Source: a virus
Taxonomy: Duplodnaviria; Heunggongvirae; Uroviricota; Caudoviricetes
Direction: 5' to 3' (one strand)
Virus record (IMG/VR): IMGVR_UViG_2799113165_000002
Span: 1-64,000 of that record
Length of the DNA: 64,000 nt
A program made the position numbers and the translations under genes. Positions 3,689 to 46,941 of this stretch are shown one piece after another. Below the pieces are notes generated by a model, which worked only from the letters and a program-made list of their open reading frames with translations, did no database searches and was not told the DNA's origin. Within the stretch, counting starts at the first letter, position 1, and the number at the start of each line of letters is the position of its first letter.

Positions 3689-4074
3689 GCGCCGAGGCGC
3701 GGTGCCCGCTGTGCGCGGACATCATGGCTGCGCCCGAGGTACGTAACTCGCTGTCTCGCTTCGTTGACTCCTACATCTGCAACCGATGCGGGATGGCCGA
3801 GGCCCTGCTTAACATCCCTCAAGAGGCGCGGCGTTGCCTGCACTTCGACGAGGTCACAGGCACCATGCTGGTCACCGAAGACGAGCCGGGGTACTACCCG
3901 TTCGCGGCGACCTTCCCGAAGGGGGTCAAGGCCCTCGCGTGGATCACGGTGTACGTGAAGGCCGTTAATGCGCGCCTTGGGCTCAGCGATACGGACGCCG
4001 AGGGCATCGTGATCAGCTCAATGTTCGGGGCACGACAGAAGTTCATCGACGCGCACTACGTGGGGCGAGGCTAG
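3685..4074 (+). CDS. hypothetical Cys-rich (CxxC...CxxC) protein
   Basis: ATGA overlap with the upstream gene (MSAEARCPLCADIM...CNRCG). 129 aa. Confidence 0.5.
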   Translation: MSAEARCPLCADIMAAPEVRNSLSRFVDSYICNRCGMAEALLNIPQEARRCLHFDEVTGTMLVTEDEPGYYPFAATFPKGVKALAWITVYVKAVNARLGLSDTDAEGIVISSMFGARQKFIDAHYVGRG

Positions 4075-4090
4075 TACCGAACACCCCAGA

Positions 4091-4137
4091 GAGAAGAAGG
4101 GGAGGACCGCCGATAGGTGGTCCTCCCCTTCTTCTAC
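4091..4137. terminator. bidirectional terminator hairpin between convergent genes
   Basis: Perfect inverted repeat AGAAGAAGGGGAGGACC-N8-GGTCCTCCCCTTCTTCT located between 3685..4074(+) and 4134..4724(-). Confidence 0.55.
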
Positions 4138-4724
4138 TTTCCGTCAAGCAAGCCCGGCAGGTCCGCCCGCAGGGTGGTGAACTCCCTGCGTAGAGCGCTG
4201 ATTTCGTCCCGAACAATGTCGGTCTGCTGATCCACCGCCCCAGTCAAGTCTTGTAGGTGAAGACCAATCGCAACTAATGCACGCGCCTGTGCCCACTGGA
4301 TCTTCAAGTCCGGGGTCAGTACATCTGGGTCCACGTCGGTGAGAACTGCGTGCGGCTTTTGAAGTGAGCTGAGGAGCGCATCTCGTGGAACGCGCCTGTC
4401 GTCCTCGGCCATGGTGGTGTTCCCTTCGCTCGGTGGTTCGACTAGCCGCAGTAGCGGCCGTTGGTGTTCCTGGGCGACTTCTTGCTGCAACGCCTCGCCC
4501 ACACACTTCGCAATGTGATCTGCGAGGCCCCGTATGGCGTCATCGGTAACGTAGTACTTCGCCGCCTGCCGCCCAATCCTCATCCGTTCGGCGATCAGGT
4601 CCAGATGGCTAGAAACATCCTCACGAGCAACCTCTTCGGACACTGCCAATCCGTGGAAGTCGGCGAGGTAACGGACCAGTAACGTCGCGCGGTCGTCGAG
4701 CCAGGGCGAACGGCGGGGCGGCAT
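4134..4724 (-). CDS. hypothetical protein
   Basis: 196-aa ORF convergent with the upstream + block. No motifs recognised. Confidence 0.5.
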   Translation of the reverse strand: MPPRRSPWLDDRATLLVRYLADFHGLAVSEEVAREDVSSHLDLIAERMRIGRQAAKYYVTDDAIRGLADHIAKCVGEALQQEVAQEHQRPLLRLVEPPSEGNTTMAEDDRRVPRDALLSSLQKPHAVLTDVDPDVLTPDLKIQWAQARALVAIGLHLQDLTGAVDQQTDIVRDEISALRREFTTLRADLPGLLDGK

Positions 4725-4773: not shown

Positions 4774-5745
4774 TTACGCCGGATTGGTCAGCCCGGCGGA
4801 CGCAATAGCTGTCACCGAACCGCCCGCAGAATGTCCGGCCCACCGCCGCGATATCGCCCTTGCAGGTGGCCCGGCTGCGGCTGCCATCATCGCGGCGCGT
4901 TTCTCGTCGTCATCCACCGCCGTATAGATCTGGGTAGTGGCGACCGAGGAGTGCCCCAACAGCTCCTGCACGGCGCGGATGTCGCGCGTGCCGCGATAGG
5001 CCCTGGTGGCGAAACGGTGCCGGAGTTTGTGCATGGTCCACACTCCCGGCATCGCGGCGGCACAAAGAGTGCCGACCCAGCGCGGCGACAGATGCCCATC
5101 GTCGTCGCCCGGGAATAGGTACCCCTCCGTGCCTAGGCCCGGAGTGTGTCCGCCTGGCCCGGCCATGATCATCTCGGCCACGTAGTCCGAAATCGGAACT
5201 ATCCGCTGCTTGCCACCCTTGCCGTGCACCACCAACGAGTAACCGACCAGGTCCTCCACGAGGTCCTGGGTGTGCACCCGTGCCACCTCCCCGCGCCGTA
5301 GCCCAGCATCGTTGGCGAGATACAGCATCTCCATGGTGCGGTCGTCTGCCGCGAGAATCGATTCCTTCCAGACGCGGTCCGGCGCTGGTCTCGGTGTTGG
5401 TGGCTCGGGTGCGACGGCCTCCATTTGGGCCGCTGGGTTGGTCGGCAAGTGTCCCTTGGCGTACGCCCAGCTGAAAAACCCGTTAGTCGTGTTGCGATAA
5501 CTTCGACGAGTTTCCCTTTGCCAGTGTGCTTGCTCAGCAAACCAATCGACCAGAGTCTCCTCGGTCACTTCATGTGGTGCACCGCCTAGCCCCCGTGCTA
5601 GCCGATGCAGATGAGCCATACGCGTTTTGACCGTATCCAGAGACTTTCCATCAGCCTCCATGTAAGTCCGGTACTTCGCGATAATCCCTTGCCACGCTTC
5701 CGGTGCGGGTGTTGGTGCCGGGCCGGTCCCCCTCTTATTTGTCAT
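4774..5745 (-). CDS. int: tyrosine integrase (site-specific recombinase, phage integrase family)
   Basis: Catalytic-region motifs ARVHTQDL, HKLRHRFATRAY and LLGHSSVATTQIYT (R...HxxR...Y). An N-terminal SAM-like domain, and the gene sits beside a tRNA-like att core. Confidence 0.85.
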   Translation of the reverse strand: MTNKRGTGPAPTPAPEAWQGIIAKYRTYMEADGKSLDTVKTRMAHLHRLARGLGGAPHEVTEETLVDWFAEQAHWQRETRRSYRNTTNGFFSWAYAKGHLPTNPAAQMEAVAPEPPTPRPAPDRVWKESILAADDRTMEMLYLANDAGLRRGEVARVHTQDLVEDLVGYSLVVHGKGGKQRIVPISDYVAEMIMAGPGGHTPGLGTEGYLFPGDDDGHLSPRWVGTLCAAAMPGVWTMHKLRHRFATRAYRGTRDIRAVQELLGHSSVATTQIYTAVDDDEKRAAMMAAAAGPPARAISRRWAGHSAGGSVTAIASAGLTNPA

Positions 5746-5966
5746 TGAGTGCGTACCGTAAATCCCGCATAAAAATTCACAGATACTCCAAAGCTATTTG
5801 TTACCAAACTGAGAGATTCATTCACCTGGCAGACGAATCTGGCAAACATCCGTCGCCAGATTCCGTTGCTACGCAGCGGCGGTGTGGCGCCTGGTGGACC
5901 ACCGCCGTTCTCGCTGCTCAGAGAGGTCGGTAGGCTCAGTGTCTATGCAGGTCAGCGGGTTTCGAA

Positions 5967-11985: not shown

Positions 11986-12332
11986 CTACCGACGACATCT
12001 GGGCAGAGCCGTACATCACCGAGTGGAACGAAGACCTGACCCGTGAACACGTCCAGGGCCGGTCAATGGGCTGGTGCGAGTGGTGTGGCAAGCAGCACGG
12101 GACTGACATGCACCACCGCCGCAATCGTTCACAGGGCGGTGGCTGGCACCCCGCCAACATCGTGCACCTGTGCCGCGACTGCCACCACTGGGTCACCACC
12201 AACCCGGCGGACGCCGAAGCAGTCGGACTCACCCTCACCCACGGCCAGGACCTATACGACACCCCCATCGCGCTACCGCTGCACGACATCTACCTGCACG
12301 ACAACTACCTACCGAAGGGCCGCAACGCATGA
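11982..12332 (+). CDS. HNH endonuclease
   Basis: HNH motif CEWCGK...HHRRNRSQGG...NIVHLCRDCHHWV. Confidence 0.7.
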   Translation: MTTDDIWAEPYITEWNEDLTREHVQGRSMGWCEWCGKQHGTDMHHRRNRSQGGGWHPANIVHLCRDCHHWVTTNPADAEAVGLTLTHGQDLYDTPIALPLHDIYLHDNYLPKGRNA

Positions 12333-23030: not shown

Positions 23031-23761
23031 CCGCGTCCTACACATTCAACACCCGCCCTGTGCAACCGGGTCCGGTCGTCGACTTCTTCGACTACGCCGA
23101 CCTCAAGTGCATACCGGCAACCCCTAACCTGGAACGTGCCAGCCTCCAGAACGCCGTCCTGTTCGGCGGCCCCGCTGTCCGGCGGTGCTTGGAGCAGGCG
23201 CCCATTGTCGGTGATCACACACACGTGCACGTCGACACGAAGGTGTCGCTGCTTCTGCCCGGGTTCATCCCTGCGATACCCGGCTGGCACACCGACGGCG
23301 TACCGCGGCGTAACGCAGACAAGCCGGGCGAGGAGACCAGTCTTATGTCGGCCAGTGCGTCCAACACCGGCGCTCCGTCGCTGGCGGCACAAACGCTCCT
23401 GGAGGCGCGGGGCTACCGGCCCCGATTCCACACCGTCCACGTCGGCAACGACTGCCCCACGCGGTTCATGCGGCACCCGTACGTGGTCGGCCTGGAGCAC
23501 AGCGGGGACTCCGGCCTGTACCGCGAGTTGACACAGAAGGTGAACGCGGCAGCACCGCGCATGGGCAACGATGACTTCCTGGACGCTCCACTGGCGCAAT
23601 GGATGTCGTGGGACTGGTGGAACATCCACACCGCCACCCCGGCCGAGACCCGCGGCTGGCGCCTCCTGATACGCGTCACCGAGTCCGACCAGCCGCCCCT
23701 AGACACTGGCTTCATCCGATCCCAGACCCAGGTGTACGTGCCCACGGAGTTCGGCTGGTGA
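23027..23761 (+). CDS. hypothetical protein
   Basis: 244-aa ORF. Possible His-x-Asp metal site (GWHTDG), unverified. Confidence 0.45.
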   Translation: MTASYTFNTRPVQPGPVVDFFDYADLKCIPATPNLERASLQNAVLFGGPAVRRCLEQAPIVGDHTHVHVDTKVSLLLPGFIPAIPGWHTDGVPRRNADKPGEETSLMSASASNTGAPSLAAQTLLEARGYRPRFHTVHVGNDCPTRFMRHPYVVGLEHSGDSGLYRELTQKVNAAAPRMGNDDFLDAPLAQWMSWDWWNIHTATPAETRGWRLLIRVTESDQPPLDTGFIRSQTQVYVPTEFGW

Positions 23762-23763
23762 GC

Positions 23764-24141
23764 ATGCCCCAACGTATTCAGTTGCGGCGTAGTGCGGGCT
23801 GGCGGAAACCGGAAGGCGCGATCAGCGTTACCCGGCCCGGGCGATGGGGCAACCCGTTCAAGGTCGTGTGCGCCGGTACGGAGCCCGGCCTTTTCAGCCG
23901 CCGTCGCGAACGTGTCTGGACCGTCGCGGGGCCAGGAACATTCTTCCAGGGCACCGGGACACACGACTGGGCAGCCGCCTACGCAGTGCGCCTGTACCGC
24001 CGCTGGCTCCTCGGCTCCATGAAACGCGTGGAGGACCTGGTGCCACTTCTCCGAGGCCACGACCTTTGCTGCTGGTGCCCACTTGACGCCCCCTGCCACG
24101 CCGACGTCCTACTCGAGCTAGCCAACCAGAAGGAGACATAG
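23764..24141 (+). CDS. DUF4326-like protein
   Basis: RPGRWGNPF motif characteristic of DUF4326. Confidence 0.5.
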   Translation: MPQRIQLRRSAGWRKPEGAISVTRPGRWGNPFKVVCAGTEPGLFSRRRERVWTVAGPGTFFQGTGTHDWAAAYAVRLYRRWLLGSMKRVEDLVPLLRGHDLCCWCPLDAPCHADVLLELANQKET

Positions 24142-24143
24142 CT

Positions 24144-25094
24144 GTGCCGCGCGACCATGGTCGGATTCTGACAATCATCTGGCGGGACAAAGACTTTCAG
24201 CAGCGCTCGGTGGAGGCACAGCGCATGTACATGCTCCTGCTGTCGCAGCCGAACGTGAACAACGCCGGAGTCTTGCCGCTGCAACTGAGCAAGTGGGCGA
24301 AGGGCTGCGACCAGACCAGCGTCGCCGATGTACGCCGCGCTACAAGCGAACTCGCCGAGCACCTGTATGTGGCGTACGACGAGGACACCGAGGAGTTGCT
24401 GGTCCGCTCGTACATACGCAACGATGGCGTGCTCAAGCACAAATACCTGTTCGCGAATGCTCTGAAATGCGCCCAGGCCGTCGAATCCCCGAGCCTGCGT
24501 GCCGTGCTGGCGGCCGAGTTGCGGCGCACCCGTCGTGCCGATGCGGTGACGGTCGCCAACCAGATTGACCCTTCTGGCCCGGGTCCAGACGGCACCCCGA
24601 CAGACCCGAGGCCGGACGGTGACCCGACGCCCCCAGACAGTGACCTCGATGGCATCGAGATGCCATCCGAAACCGACCCCGATGGCATCGAAAACCCATC
24701 GCAATCCGATGTGCCATTGGAATGCCATTCCGATGGCATCGCGATCACTAGGGGGAAGGGGAAGGGGAAGGGGAAGGGGAAGGGGTCACCTTGGGTAGGT
24801 GGTTACGTTGGGGAGGCGCCCACCCGCTGCCCCAAGCACATCAACGACCCACATCCCCCAAACTGCCGTGACTGCATGACAGCCCGGCTGGCAGCGGAGG
24901 CAGCCGCCGAGGAGGCAGCCGAACGTCAGAAGTCGGACCGGGCAGCAGCCCTGGCCCGGCGGGAGGCGTGCACCCGCTGCCAGGGCGGCGGCTGGATCGA
25001 GGCCGACGACGGTTCCGGCGTCCTGCCCTGCACGTGCCGTAAACCCCTACAGCTCGTCCCACACCCCGCAGACGCGCGGAGGGCAGCCGGATGA
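24144..25094 (+). CDS. hypothetical protein with internal DNA and peptide repeats (possible replication/origin-associated protein)
   Basis: N-terminal winged-helix-like region. Central DGIE peptide repeats encoded by GATGGCATCG iterons. (GK)5 is encoded by (GGGGAA)6. C-terminal Cys cluster. Confidence 0.5.
   Translation: MPRDHGRILTIIWRDKDFQQRSVEAQRMYMLLLSQPNVNNAGVLPLQLSKWAKGCDQTSVADVRRATSELAEHLYVAYDEDTEELLVRSYIRNDGVLKHKYLFANALKCAQAVESPSLRAVLAAELRRTRRADAVTVANQIDPSGPGPDGTPTDPRPDGDPTPPDSDLDGIEMPSETDPDGIENPSQSDVPLECHSDGIAITRGKGKGKGKGKGSPWVGGYVGEAPTRCPKHINDPHPPNCRDCMTARLAAEAAAEEAAERQKSDRAAALARREACTRCQGGGWIEADDGSGVLPCTCRKPLQLVPHPADARRAAG
24640..24790. repeat. iteron-like repeats GATGGCATCG (x3 plus inverted copies), then tandem hexamer (GGGGAA)x6
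   Basis: Read directly: ctcGATGGCATCGAGATGCCATCc..., cccGATGGCATCGaaaac, tccGATGGCATCGcg; ggggaa repeated six times at ~24752-24787. Confidence 0.55.
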
Positions 25095-25297
25095 CCGCCA
25101 GCGAGACGTCACGGGCATTTCAGGCCAAGTACCCAGACCAATGCGAGGACTGCGACGAGCCCGTCAACGTCGGCGACTGGGTCCGGTACGTCGACGACGC
25201 CCTCATCCACACGGACTGCCCCAACGCCGCGCCGCCAGTGGCCATCACGGACGTTTGTGGCAAGTGCTGGACCGTGCACGCTGGGGGCTGCCTGTGA
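25091..25297 (+). CDS. small Cys-rich zinc-binding protein
   Basis: CEDCDE...CPN...CGKC. Confidence 0.45.
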   Translation: MTASETSRAFQAKYPDQCEDCDEPVNVGDWVRYVDDALIHTDCPNAAPPVAITDVCGKCWTVHAGGCL

Positions 25298-25689
25298 TGA
25301 CCGGAGACCGCCTCACCGAACAGCAGATCGCAGCCCTAGTAGACACCCAGCTGGTCGGACTGAACGACCAGTTTGTCGGCCGACGCCCGACCTGCCAGCA
25401 CCCACAACACACGTGCAGGCGGGCGGTCACCGCGGTCGTCTCGGTACACGTCCTGGACAACTGCGACGGCGAGGAGGCAGACGAATTCGGCAACGAGGTG
25501 TTCCTGTTGTGCACGAATTGCGCACGGGCGCTGTGGATAGCGGCCCAGTGGGAGGTACGCGACCGCACGGTCGCCGCTACCCGTGCTGGCGTCATACCCA
25601 TGTGCTCTACCTGCCAGGCGCCAGTGGCCAAGCCATCGCACATCGTCCGCGATTTACGCAAATACGAGGAGGTTTTCGATGCACCGTGA
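25297..25689 (+). CDS. hypothetical Cys-rich protein
   Basis: ORF only. Confidence 0.45.
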   Translation: MTGDRLTEQQIAALVDTQLVGLNDQFVGRRPTCQHPQHTCRRAVTAVVSVHVLDNCDGEEADEFGNEVFLLCTNCARALWIAAQWEVRDRTVAATRAGVIPMCSTCQAPVAKPSHIVRDLRKYEEVFDAP

Positions 25690-42252: not shown

Positions 42253-42476
42253 TGGCCGACAACGTCACCCGCCTCGACGACCACCGCACACCGCTGACCA
42301 CCAACCACCGCTGCATCAAATGCGGTAGCGAGTGGTTCCGGCTGGACGGAACCCTCGCCGGACCCGATGCGCCCGCCCACGGCGCCGTGGTCCTGGCCGC
42401 CGACGACCGCATCCGCATAACCGGCTACTGCGGCACACCCCGCTGCCTGGAGTGCGGCCACCTGGTGGCGGTCTAG
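42252..42476 (+). CDS. zinc-ribbon protein
   Basis: CIKCGS...CLECGH. Confidence 0.45.
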   Translation: MADNVTRLDDHRTPLTTNHRCIKCGSEWFRLDGTLAGPDAPAHGAVVLAADDRIRITGYCGTPRCLECGHLVAV

Positions 42477-43407: not shown

Positions 43408-44919
43408 ATGACCACGACCCCCGAGGACCTGGTCGTCCGAGTGTTTGCTGTAACCGACCTGAGGACTTTCGCCGGCAACCCTCGGCGCGGACAGGTCGAT
43501 GCCATCGTCCAGTCGCTCTCCCGTCATGGCCAGTACCGGCCGATTGTCGTCAACGCGGGCACTAAGACAGGTCGCCCGATGGAGGTGCTGGCGGGCAACC
43601 ACACCCTCCTGGCGGCCCGCAAGCTGGGCTGGGACACCATCAGTGCCACGTTGCTGGACGTGTCCGAGCAGCAGGCCAAGGCCATCGTCGCGGCCGACAA
43701 CCGTTTGTCCGACCTGGGTGACTACGACACCGCGGAACTGCTGGCGCTCCTGGAGGGCTTGGACGAGCTGGACGGCACCGGTTACACGGCGGCCGACCTG
43801 GAGGAGCTGGCGTCCGAGCTGACCGTGCCGGACGGAGACGGTGCGGTGTCCGATGCCAAGAGCACGCTGGCCTCCCGGTTCGGGGTTCCACCGTTCACGG
43901 TGCTCGATGCCAAGCAGGGCGCCTGGAAGCAACGGGTTAAGGCGTGGAAGGCGCTCGGAATCGCCTCGGCGTCCGGCCGCTCGGTCGATACAGAAGGTGG
44001 GTCGGATGCCCGTGCCGCAACGGGCATCATGGCGTTCAAGGCGCCTCAGTCGATCTACGCCAACTGGTACGAGATCAAGAACGCCGCTGAGAAGAAGATC
44101 GGCCGGACGTTGACCACCGCCGAGATCATGGAGCGCTACGGCGACGAGCTGAAGTTCTACGCCGAGGGCGGCGCCATCTCAGTATTCGACCCGGTGCTCG
44201 CCGAGCTGCTGGTGTCGTGGTTCTCACCGGTGGAGGCCGACGTCATCGACCCATGGTCCGGCGGCTCGGTCCGGGGTGTCGTATCGGCCGCCCTCGGCCG
44301 CAGGTACACCGGCATCGACCTGTCCGGTGACCAGCTGGCGGTGAACGGGGAACAGTGGGCGGTGGTGGAGCCGCGACTCCCGCAGATGGCCACGACCGTC
44401 ACGGCACCGCAGTGGATTCAGGGCGACTCTCGCGACGTTCTCAAGACCCTGGATGACGAGTCGTTCGACATGATGATCGGCTGCCCGCCCTACTACGACC
44501 TGGAGCAGTACTCCAAGGACCCGGCCGACCTGTCGGCCATGTCCACGGACGAGTTCGACGCCGCCTTCATCGAGACCATCGCCGAGGTGGCCCGGGTGCT
44601 GCGGCCCGACTCGTTCGCGGCACTCGTGGTCGGGTCAGCCCGCGACAAGCGCGGGGACCTACGCGATATGCGATCCCTGGTTTCCCGCGCGGCCGACGCC
44701 ACCGGAATGAAGCTCGCCAACGACGCCGTACTCCTGACCGCCATCGGGTCCAACGCCGCCCGCGCGGCACGCCCCTTCTCCAAAGGTCGCGCACTGGGCC
44801 GGGTGCACCAGGACATCTTGGTGTTGGTGAAGGGCGACCGGATACGGGCTGCACGCCGTTGCGGGGAGGAAGTCACCTTGATCGCGGAACCCGAGCTGGA
44901 CGAGGACGGTGAGGATTGA
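43408..44919 (+). CDS. ParB-like nuclease N-domain fused to a DNA methyltransferase (N6A/N4C type)
   Basis: ParB N-domain IVVNAGTKTGRPMEVLAGNHTLLAARKLGW. MTase motif I-like DPWSGGS and motif IV-like CPPYYD. Confidence 0.6.
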   Translation: MTTTPEDLVVRVFAVTDLRTFAGNPRRGQVDAIVQSLSRHGQYRPIVVNAGTKTGRPMEVLAGNHTLLAARKLGWDTISATLLDVSEQQAKAIVAADNRLSDLGDYDTAELLALLEGLDELDGTGYTAADLEELASELTVPDGDGAVSDAKSTLASRFGVPPFTVLDAKQGAWKQRVKAWKALGIASASGRSVDTEGGSDARAATGIMAFKAPQSIYANWYEIKNAAEKKIGRTLTTAEIMERYGDELKFYAEGGAISVFDPVLAELLVSWFSPVEADVIDPWSGGSVRGVVSAALGRRYTGIDLSGDQLAVNGEQWAVVEPRLPQMATTVTAPQWIQGDSRDVLKTLDDESFDMMIGCPPYYDLEQYSKDPADLSAMSTDEFDAAFIETIAEVARVLRPDSFAALVVGSARDKRGDLRDMRSLVSRAADATGMKLANDAVLLTAIGSNAARAARPFSKGRALGRVHQDILVLVKGDRIRAARRCGEEVTLIAEPELDEDGED

Positions 44920-45368: not shown

Positions 45369-46941
45369 GGGACACACGGTCCCCAGGCTGTTCACGCCAC
45401 CCCTAGCTGATCACTGCGACCCCGACCTACCCGAGACCTGCGAATGCGGGTGTGGCCTAAACCCCGCTACCTCGTGGGGCTTTGGCTGCATCGACTTTCT
45501 CGAAAACGTCGTCAACTGGGAACTTCTGCCGTACCAGAAGTGGCTCTACATCCACGCCCTGGAGAAGGGCGCCAACGGAACCGGATTCAGGTTCCGCACC
45601 GTCTGCATTTTGATCGCCCGCCAGAACGGCAAAACCCAGTGGCTGCGCGGCCTCGGCCTCTGGCGCCTGTACCTCAACAAGACCGGCCGCCCGATGGTCG
45701 GGAAGCCACCGGCGGCGAAAACGGTCCTGATCGCCGCGCAGGGCCTGGAGTACGCCGAGGCGACGCTGGGCGAAGTCGTCATCAACGTCGACGAATGCCC
45801 AGCCCTCAAGCGGGAATTCGTCAAGCACGTACAGACGAACGGCAAGCACCGCATGCTGCTGACTGGCCGCCGGTCATGGCGCGCGGTCGCCGCAAACCGC
45901 AAGGGCGGCCGTTCCTTCTCCGTCGATCTGGCGCAGCTGGACGAGCTGCGCGAGCACCACGACTGGCTGGCCTGGGATGCCATCGTCCCGACCACTACTG
46001 CCCGGCCGAACAGCCAAGTTGTCTGCGCATCCAACGCCGGGGACAAGCGCTCCATGGTGCTTCGTTCTGTCCGGCAGGGCTGCCTAGAAGACATCTACCG
46101 GCGGGACACCGACGGCACCAGCACCGGCCTATTCGAGTGGTCGGCACCGGACGACGCCGAGCCGAGCAACCGGTCGGTGTGGCCCATGGCCAACCCCGCC
46201 CTCGGCTGGCTGCCGGGCCACGACGAGGAATCACTGGCCGCCAAATACGAGGCGAAGCGCGGCGACATCGCCGGATTCAAGACCGAGCACCTATGCCAAT
46301 GGGTCGACACCTTGTTGCCCGGAATCATCGAGCCCGAGCACTGGGCGGAAACGATGGACCCGGACTCACGCAGGGCTGAGGGGGCGCCTGTGTGGGCTGC
46401 CGTAGACGTCAACTTCCAACGCTCCCGCGCATATATCGCCATCGCGGCGCGCCGCGCGGACGGCCTTCTACACGTCGAAGTCGTGAAGGCCGGACGCGGA
46501 ACCGACTGGATCATCCCGTGGTTCACCGACTCCACACGCGCCGGAAAGTTCGTCGCAGTGGCTGTACAGGTCCGCGGTGCGCCAGCCTCCGGGCTGATCG
46601 AGGGCATGGAAAAGGCCCAAATCCCGGTACTGGAGTGGGGCGGCCCGGACCTCGCGAAGGCGTGCGGCGACTTCTACGACGGCCTCGTGCAACGCGGCAT
46701 CAAGCACCGGCCCCAGGCAGCACTAGACACCGCCGCCGCATCCGCCGCAGCGAAATCACTAGGCGACGCATGGGTATTCGACCGCAAGGGAAGCCCGGTC
46801 GACGCCTCTCCGCTGGTTGCCTGCGCCGCGGCGGCGTGGGCCGAATCCAAGGGGATACCGGAGCCAGAACCGGTACCCGTAATCCATGAATGGCCCGACG
46901 ACGAGGAGATCGCGCGATGGGAACGAGGGGAGTTTGAGTGA
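45331..46941 (+). CDS. terL: terminase large subunit
   Basis: Walker A ARQNGKTQW. C-terminal nuclease domain. Located upstream of portal. Start uncertain because of the 38-nt overlap with TerS. Confidence 0.8.
   Translation: MTSTSGVLDRTLRGHTVPRLFTPPLADHCDPDLPETCECGCGLNPATSWGFGCIDFLENVVNWELLPYQKWLYIHALEKGANGTGFRFRTVCILIARQNGKTQWLRGLGLWRLYLNKTGRPMVGKPPAAKTVLIAAQGLEYAEATLGEVVINVDECPALKREFVKHVQTNGKHRMLLTGRRSWRAVAANRKGGRSFSVDLAQLDELREHHDWLAWDAIVPTTTARPNSQVVCASNAGDKRSMVLRSVRQGCLEDIYRRDTDGTSTGLFEWSAPDDAEPSNRSVWPMANPALGWLPGHDEESLAAKYEAKRGDIAGFKTEHLCQWVDTLLPGIIEPEHWAETMDPDSRRAEGAPVWAAVDVNFQRSRAYIAIAARRADGLLHVEVVKAGRGTDWIIPWFTDSTRAGKFVAVAVQVRGAPASGLIEGMEKAQIPVLEWGGPDLAKACGDFYDGLVQRGIKHRPQAALDTAAASAAAKSLGDAWVFDRKGSPVDASPLVACAAAAWAESKGIPEPEPVPVIHEWPDDEEIARWERGEFE

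Follow-up and report, generated by a model that had tools for sequence, protein, structure and literature searches.

We describe here a cluster of short palindromic DNA sites inside a gene of a Mycobacterium abscessus prophage, and propose that this cluster and the two elements that follow it form the origin at which the phage begins to replicate. The window, the whole stretch of 64,000 nucleotides that was analyzed (positions 1 to 64,000 of the IMG/VR virus record IMGVR_UViG_2799113165_000002), carries a prophage of the Cluster MabK type, and the gene in question, at 24144-25094, encodes a member of a family of phage proteins that carry replication-initiator annotations. Positions 24648-24815 are probably the lytic (theta-type) origin of this prophage, with the product of the gene as its initiator, because the anatomy of the region equals that of two experimentally established systems, pSK41 Rep and lambda. 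Within the gene the part for a winged-helix N-terminal domain is followed by phased palindromes in the linker-coding part, a hexamer-periodic tract, an A/T-enriched block, and the part for the C-terminal domain. This order and the geometry of the sites are conserved across about 30 diverged lineages, and the sequence of the sites is each lineage's own.

A phased palindrome array within the gene

An earlier note on this DNA had reported a decamer that occurs three times directly and also in inverted copies, and we find it as described: GATGGCATCG lies at 24648-24657, 24681-24690 and 24732-24741, and at 24648-24667 two 9-nt arms, GATGGCATC and GATGCCATC, form a perfect inverted repeat around the 2-nt spacer GA. 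The underlying unit is the 9-bp palindrome GATG-S-CATC. Exact copies of GATGSCATC number six in the 64-kb window against 0.54 expected, a count reached by none of 100 shuffles, and four of the six fall inside 93 bp. With three degenerate copies at 24692-24700 (AAACCCATC), 24710-24718 (TGTGCCATT) and 24721-24729 (AATGCCATT), these four make an array of seven sites, grouped into three pairs or triplets whose members are 11 bp apart; the site centers stand at 24652, 24663, 24685, 24696, 24714, 24725 and 24736, giving spacings of 11, 22, 11, 18, 11 and 11. Two isolated exact palindromes (GATGCCATC) are found far from the array, at 43498-43506 and 45976-45984; they could be chance occurrences, the expected number being a window-wide one, or secondary binding sites.

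The repeats had been taken to encode a DGIE peptide repeat. This holds for the DGI of three sites and fails for the array as a whole: the seven copies lie in reading frames 0, 2, 0, 2, 2, 1 and 0 and encode DGI, MPS, DGI, NPS, VPL, CHS and DGI. Because the copies occupy all three frames and both orientations, the array is, as judged from its sequence, a feature of the DNA and not a peptide repeat.

Comparison with close relatives supports this reading. Absence of the repeats from relatives with a conserved protein, which the earlier note had suggested looking for, was not found; the seven-site array is present in all 11 MabK-type genes (8 distinct sequences), and all 10 close relatives as well as a 74%-identical homologue (L090) keep it. 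The center base of the palindrome flips between G and C among relatives, with Gly-to-Ala and Pro-to-Ala changes in L009, L011, L012 and L090. Site 3 (24681-24689), for example, reads GATGGCATC in the window and GATGCCATC in L009, L011 and L012, changing Gly to Ala, and in L090 ATG-CCA (Met-Pro) has become ATG-GCA (Met-Ala) and GTG-CCA has become GTG-GCA. These substitutions alter the protein yet keep the half-sites. Variable third-codon sites are scarce in the array and in the tract and block that follow it, at 4 of 55, where the two folded domains have 61 of 235 (Fisher P 0.0012); for the tract and block by themselves the figure is 0 of 22 (P 0.0019). If confirmed, an origin in this place would explain why the middle of these genes is hypervariable as protein and constrained as DNA.

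The array can be followed far beyond the MabK prophages. Our sample comprised six distant homologues and 80 IMG/VR loci, reduced to 30 lineages at <=75% amino acid identity. Each of the six distant homologues has its own cluster of short repeats at the same position in the gene, with a differing motif and spacings such as 11, 22, 33 and 18. Repeat density was measured over the whole locus as repeated 8-mers, direct or inverted, in a 140-nt window, and the maximum of the locus falls at nucleotides 330-700 of the gene in 24 of the 30 lineages, with a median score of 0-1 outside the gene (binomial P ~5e-23 for the position, the lineages being taken as independent). Exact direct 7-mer repeats are most often 11 nt (17/30 lineages) or 12 nt (22/30) apart, with further peaks at 22-24 and 33-36 and nothing at 15 or 27; among 299 control segments of the same loci, 11-nt repeats occur in 2.3% and repeats at multiples of three in ~7-13%. 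The 11-nt period is about one helical turn, and peptide repeats cannot yield it.

The motifs are specific to each lineage and mostly near-palindromic. The commonest is GAACCCTTC/GAAGGGTTC; others are GATGSCATC in the window, GGCACCGTG/ACGG..CCGT (L003), GACCCCGTC (L078), ATCCCATCC (L084), GATGCCCCCAAGG (L070) and CGATAGCCCATCGG (L071). Despite these differences in sequence the geometry is kept. Sites stand at offsets of 0, 11, 33, 44, 62 and 73 in the window, L084, L064, L067 and L017, and roughly so in L003, with a degenerate slot at 22, although the lineages that share these offsets use unrelated motifs (GATGSCATC, ATCCCATCC, GAACCCTTC and GGCACCGTG); the full register of the window is 0, 11, 33, 44, 62, 73 and 84. 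The retention of geometry across unrelated motifs speaks for a nucleoprotein architecture that is conserved and made up of paired sites. The suggestion of clustered iterons inside an initiator gene is thus strengthened, in that the repeats behave as helically phased, predicted binding sites of the DNA whose position is conserved throughout the family.

These comparisons also bear on the idea that the repeats are the mere DNA shadow of a low-complexity, disordered linker peptide of DGIE-, NPS- and GK-type repeats, with no function of their own. The region does encode a disordered linker, linkers often contain oligopeptide repeats rich in proline, glycine or acidic residues, and 12-nt spacings, equal to four codons, are frequent. 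Against this stand the 11-nt spacings with their rarity in the controls, the non-matching tripeptides in three frames and two orientations, the center flips that change the amino acid and keep the palindrome, the depletion of third-codon variation, and the reading of GGGGAA as GK, GE or RE according to lineage. The analysis of frames largely refutes the idea, and we consider it highly improbable.

Rearrangements within the family raise a further alternative, that the cluster is a recombination or mosaic joint which shuffles N- and C-terminal modules and not a protein-binding origin. Domain swaps do exist (L017 against L018; L059 and L061 against L062), and a 63-nt block of the array (gene nucleotides ~430-560, encoding ETVPEPLNGSETKTNPTQTVS) is duplicated in L061 relative to L059, which shows that close relatives can come to differ in array size through tandem duplication. 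In the L017/L018 pair, however, the breakpoint lies inside the C-terminal domain, downstream of array, tract and block; identity is 87% (amino acids) in the N-terminal domain, 89% (nucleotides) in the array and tract, and 51% (amino acids) in the swapped C-terminal domain, and the N-terminal domain, array and tract thus stay together when the C-terminal domain is exchanged. A joint of this kind, which we regard as very unlikely, would also leave the lineage-specific palindromes, the conserved 11-bp geometry and the A/T-enriched segment unexplained.

The gene product fits the role of an initiator in its relationships and in its predicted architecture. Among the long open reading frames (ORFs) at the locus, this plus-strand ORF alone fits the neighboring genes. 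It is 93% identical in nucleotides to gene 34 of prophiT37-1 and gene 36 of prophiGD43A-5, M. abscessus Cluster MabK prophages from two published studies, neither of which discusses replication (PMC9934374, PMC8092301); the M. abscessus strains GD43A and T37 are reported to release phage spontaneously (PMC9934374). The protein matches PHROG 3171, 'replication initiation protein', over residues 1-292 (E 4.2e-71), and besides it two sister PHROGs; the match to phrog_8064 has E 1.8e-36. On these profile matches it is a member of the actinophage PHROG 3171 family, in keeping with the replication-protein gene that had been postulated. Relatives found by tblastn in 344 phage records come from Gordonia, Mycobacterium, Arthrobacter and Rhodococcus phages and usually align only over the first ~126 residues; they are variously named replication initiation protein, RepA-like replication initiator, helix-turn-helix (HTH) protein or hypothetical protein. 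A HMMER scan with the N-terminal domain returned 2,781 representative clusters at 50% identity (E<=1e-3), and among the 150 matches listed nearly all start at the N-terminus, in proteins of ~130-490 residues, mostly 250-430. Hosts of this family include Mycobacterium/Mycobacteroides, Gordonia, Rhodococcus, Nocardia, Arthrobacter, Streptomyces and Corynebacterium.

AlphaFold2, run on a 66-sequence alignment, gives a confident model of the winged-helix-like N-terminal region that had been noticed in the sequence, and we presume that this domain is the iteron-binding and oligomerization module. In the linker the predicted local distance difference test score (pLDDT) is below 50 at residues 169-207 and 213-224, and the array, the hexamer tract and the block after it (gene nucleotides 505-672, residues 169-224) lie exactly within this disordered segment. 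The C-terminal domain is modeled as one long helix with zinc-ribbon-like strands and is presumed to recruit host replication proteins. Its supposed Cys4 cluster proves to be two motifs: C229-x2-H232-x8-C241-x2-C244 (CHCC, residues 229-244) and C276-x2-C279-x16-C296-x-C298 (CCCC, residues 276-298), of which the family consensus keeps CxxH...CxxC and CxxC...CxH. A weak match to Anti-TRAP was set aside, as it merely reflects a CxxCxGxG-like motif.

The hexamer tract and the A/T-enriched block

The array is followed directly by tandem GGGGAA hexamers encoding (GK)5, which had been described before and which Tandem Repeats Finder delimits to 24752-24785, with period 6, 5.7 copies and 100% matches. 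We regard this homopurine tract as a candidate element for opening the origin, or as an accessory to it. It measures 34 nt in the window and L011 and ~22-24 nt in L090; the remaining MabK genes have 28 nt, in which one or two units read GGGGAG. Every allele is in frame, and every substitution in the tract among relatives is an exchange of A and G. The peptide read from it is (GK)5 in the window, (GE)5 in L019, GVGVGEGE in L017 and RERVRVGV in L003. At L019:3021-3052 (gene nucleotides 521-552) a (GGGGAA)5 stretch of DNA identical to that of the window tract encodes a peptide of opposite charge. The opposite charges of the GK and GE peptides argue that the DNA rather than the peptide is kept.

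The differences in length among relatives might be taken as the mark of a contingency locus, in which slippage in the (GGGGAA)n tract phase-varies the protein, as the earlier note had suggested. The unit of six nucleotides, however, equals two codons, so that slippage cannot switch the frame; the observed alleles are all in frame and full length, and the GGGGAG interruptions of most relatives reduce slippage. On/off switching by this route is thus contradicted by the alleles themselves, and we consider a contingency locus extremely improbable.

A marked 6-nt-periodic tract (>=13/18 lag-6 matches) comes directly after the array in ~18 of the 30 lineages, purine-rich in some and pyrimidine-rich or mixed in others, and a canonical G-quadruplex motif on the coding strand is present at this position in 7 of the 30, against ~0.02 expected per lineage. 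For the RNA of 24746-24820, ViennaRNA with its G-quadruplex option and RNA parameters predicts a four-layer G-quadruplex at -52.9 kcal/mol for the 75 nt; on this model the mRNA may be structured inside the coding region at the tract.

The block downstream of the tract is a candidate DNA-unwinding segment, and it also encodes a conserved short peptide motif. Only 1 of its 30 sites is variable among close relatives, and in the L003 group (22 sequences) the segment of tract and A/T block is the least variable stretch of the gene. Related blocks (...CTCAAGTTGGGGAG) come after the array in many lineages. The minimum of GC content at third codon positions (GC3; 12-codon window) falls in codons 150-235 of the gene in 29 of the 30 lineages, with minima of 0.0-0.5, at or below 0.33 in 25 of them, against ~0.75 gene-wide; in most lineages the 30-nt window with the lowest GC likewise comes just after the array and belongs to the lowest 0.02-0.5% of locus windows. 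This is how an unwinding element forced into the coding region of a GC-rich genome should look.

Table 1. Coordinates of the predicted initiator gene, the domains it encodes and the DNA elements inside it (positions in the window).
Feature	Position	Strand	Details
Initiator gene	24144-25094	+	GTG start, 316 aa, GGAGA ribosome-binding site 8 nt upstream; from the ORF list
N-terminal winged-helix domain	24144-24578	+	aa 1-145, pLDDT ~96; winged-helix topology, then three helices (predicted)
Disordered interdomain linker-coding region	24591-24818	+	aa ~150-225; pLDDT falls from aa ~150
Iteron array, seven 9-bp palindromic sites	24648-24740		24648-56, 24659-67, 24681-89, 24692-700, 24710-18, 24721-29, 24732-40; four exact, three degenerate
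Homopurine (GGGGAA)5.7 tract	24750-24785	+	36-nt all-purine run; encodes R(GK)5G; canonical G-quadruplex motif on coding (non-template) strand
A/T-enriched block TCACCTTGGGTAGGTGGTTACGTTGGGGAG	24786-24815		Encodes SPWVGGYVGE; GC3 0.40 vs 0.78-0.80 in the two domains
C-terminal domain	24819-25091	+	aa 226-316; long helix 242-275 flanked by two Zn-type motifs; pLDDT 79-93

Likeness to known origins and the proposed mechanism

The layout of the gene is that of the pSK41-type RepA_N initiators of Firmicutes plasmids (PF06970; structure 4pta), in which the repeats are also central in the gene, in the linker-coding part, and it is by this analogy that an origin role is predicted here. In pSK41 Rep (319 residues) the N-terminal 120 residues bind four Rep boxes in the center of rep, the linker (residues 121-199), whose coding DNA is the origin, is not needed as protein, and the C-terminal domain contacts the host primase (PMC5703833). 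The winged-helix fold predicted for the phage protein matches that of the solved N-terminal domain of RepA (RepA_N). There is, however, no detectable sequence similarity between the two, and the C-terminal domain of the phage family is a long helix with two zinc motifs, whereas that of RepA_N is a DnaD-like five-helix bundle. The settings differ as well: an integrating prophage of a high-GC actinobacterium, as opposed to plasmids, and GC-rich 9-bp palindromes followed by a hexamer-periodic tract, as opposed to A+T-rich Rep boxes.

At the level of fold, the N-terminal domain also resembles predicted replisome organizers (BFVD E 2.7e-5), the class of Firmicutes phage proteins typified by SPP1 G38P (Phage_rep_org_N). 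SPP1 G38P binds repeats inside its own gene (oriL). The phage protein differs from this class in giving no Pfam match and in its C-terminal domain, and no partner helicase or loader is annotated in the first 40 kb of a relative's record.

In lambda, ori lies between the N-terminal DNA-binding and the C-terminal parts of O, with dyad repeats followed by an easily opened segment. The lambda origin has four 19-bp iterons and a truly A+T-rich region, the opened segment shows purine/pyrimidine strand asymmetry, and host replication proteins are needed. The window resembles this arrangement in its dyad-symmetric sites inside the gene, followed by a tract with a like purine/pyrimidine asymmetry of the strands and by the block, with a melting propensity that is only moderate, and in the probable reliance of the phage on host replication proteins. 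It differs in having seven 9-bp sites in pairs, a G-rich hexamer tract and only mild A/T enrichment, and there is no sequence relationship to O (no Phage_rep_O match). No lambda-P-like loader gene was recognized next to the initiator, where the downstream genes are small hypothetical ORFs, none of them searched individually. Wetzel et al. (2020) cite the position of the lambda origin inside gene O in their study of the RepA of Cluster A mycobacteriophages, which are non-integrating parABS phages (PMC7157519). That RepA, with an HTH at residues 95-132, is a mycobacteriophage-encoded initiator too; the authors suggest repA or the DNA just before it as a possible place of the origin, and they found no repeated motifs (PMC7157519). 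By that published description it is a different initiator, and the phages studied here are set apart, as they integrate and carry conspicuous arrays.

The Rep_3/RepA initiators of iteron plasmids (pPS10, F and R6K type) are marked by tandem WH1-WH2 domains together with a Rep_3 profile match, a combination not found here. Since there are no profile matches, membership of the protein in RepA_N, Phage_rep_O, Phage_rep_org_N, DnaD or Rep_3 cannot be demonstrated from its sequence, and its likeness to RepA_N, lambda O and the replisome organizers is one of layout and of N-terminal fold class.

By analogy with these systems we propose a model in which dimers of the N-terminal domain would occupy the palindromic iterons along a single face of the DNA helix and oligomerize into a wrapped nucleoprotein complex, like lambda O at ori-lambda and pSK41 Rep at the Rep boxes. 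The strain from wrapping would open the adjoining hexamer tract and A/T-enriched block, and the C-terminal zinc domain would then recruit host helicase or primase. The annotation of the first 40 kb of a MabK relative's 76.5-kb record, which comprises 78 of 118 features, lists no polymerase, helicase or primase, and the MabK phage therefore probably relies on host replication proteins. The encoded linker peptide would be largely a passenger of the DNA element.

More speculatively, transcription through the G-rich non-template tract may help opening by way of an R-loop or a G-quadruplex. In this high-GC clade a frame-independent (GGGGWA)n homopurine tract might replace or supplement the classical A+T-rich unwinding element. 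Because the G-rich strand is the non-template one when the initiator gene itself is transcribed, opening would be coupled to that transcription, with an R-loop, a G-quadruplex or both forming beside the iteron-bound initiator. We put this forward tentatively, as a possibility that is doubtful at present. If true, it would be a new way of firing the origin of a bacterial virus, one that couples expression of the initiator to opening in cis.

Several points weigh against an origin at this position. The PHROG and GenBank names for the family are annotation transfers. The query and its 66 homologues give no Pfam match at E<=1, RepA_N, Phage_rep_O, Phage_rep_org_N and DnaD included, the protein has no NCBIfam match, and a search of PDB sequences with the family profile was also empty. 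The survey for replication genes covered the first 40 kb of the MabK relative's 76.5-kb record, in which many genes are only 'hypothetical'. The 30 lineages share ancestry, so that the binomial P-values overstate their independence. GC and AT skew over the window is monotonic and tracks gene orientation; it has no inflection at 24.7 kb and is uninformative. A homologue occurs in only 3 of 72,556 plasmid records, all of them large, and the one inspected is a phage-like element; being few and phage-like, the plasmid homologues therefore give no independent support for autonomous replication. The A/T-enriched block also encodes a conserved peptide, VGGYVGE, and part of its conservation may therefore be at the protein level. 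In the window, finally, the putative unwinding segment is weak: by nearest-neighbor stability it is among the least-stable 4-7% of windows and is not the minimum, the local GC of the candidate region is 0.57-0.69, and that of the block is 0.57 overall. A strong unwinding element therefore cannot be claimed for this window.

In the main rival explanation the array is a cluster of regulatory operators, used for autorepression, as a transcriptional roadblock or by some other DNA-binding protein of phage or host, and the origin lies elsewhere. The closest phage records name the product only 'helix-turn-helix DNA binding protein', phased palindromic sites are typical of operators too, and both the weak unwinding segment and the lack of a skew signal agree with it. 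Regulation, on the other hand, leaves unexplained the conserved hexamer-periodic tract and the synonymous-site A/T enrichment downstream of the array (29/30 lineages); the fold is nearest to replication initiators and not repressors, and the layout equals that of proven origins inside genes. We consider an operator without an origin rather unlikely, and the two roles are not exclusive, because initiators commonly autoregulate through the same sites.

Gene neighborhood and implications of the finding

Small Cys-rich ORFs follow the initiator gene, from 25091-25297, which overlaps its stop codon (ATGA), to ~27050. One of them has a 68-residue product with CxxC...C...CxxC, and these ORFs could encode partners of the initiator. 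In L090, the M. abscessus relative, a DUF4326 gene (3933-4364) lies directly downstream of the initiator. A similar-looking ORF of the window, 23599-24141, lies directly upstream of it, the likeness being one of sequence appearance; this suggests that gene order around the initiator has been shuffled locally between the window and L090. A scan of 23600-25600 for sigma-70 promoters and terminators returned no promoters and one terminator-like site, at chance level.

Elsewhere in the window, the least stable 100-bp stretches lie at ~5732-5830 and ~31349-31450; they are clearly less stable than the candidate origin and are probably intergenic or regulatory regions of the prophage. Two other tandem repeats reported by Tandem Repeats Finder, at 12279-12310 and 42279-42313 (15-nt x2.1 and 17-nt x2.1), are unrelated to the array. 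A 33%-identical homologue of the initiator is present at L091:5986-6879, on the 49-kb circular 'plasmid' pSMC-2_1 of Mycobacterium sp. SMC-2 (NZ_CP079864.1). Its neighbors look phage-like and include a phage N-6-adenine methyltransferase, an HNH endonuclease and many small hypothetical genes; pSMC-2_1 may be a prophage kept outside the chromosome or a phage genome that was assembled as a circle.

We found no description of origins or iterons for this family in the open-access literature, where the motif strings matched primer noise only. A 'tetrapeptide repeat' of Tweety gp54 was considered as a related lead and rejected, as the gene is an unrelated one and Llij lacks it.

The principle of an origin inside an initiator gene is already well known. 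What seems to be new is its GC-rich implementation, an array geometry that persists while specificities change, the wide extent of the family, and the frame-independent G-rich hexamer tract in place of the classical A+T-rich element. If confirmed, the finding would provide origin predictions at the level of base pairs for a very large, Pfam-less family of initiators of actinobacterial phages and prophages. It would likewise yield compact cassettes of initiator plus origin with many naturally orthogonal iteron specificities, useful for plasmid and phasmid vectors in M. abscessus and other actinobacteria. The placing of an origin inside the initiator linker, as in lambda, the RepA_N plasmids and SPP1, would then extend to a third bacterial phylum, and its GC-rich implementation raises the testable question of how origins open without an A+T-rich element.

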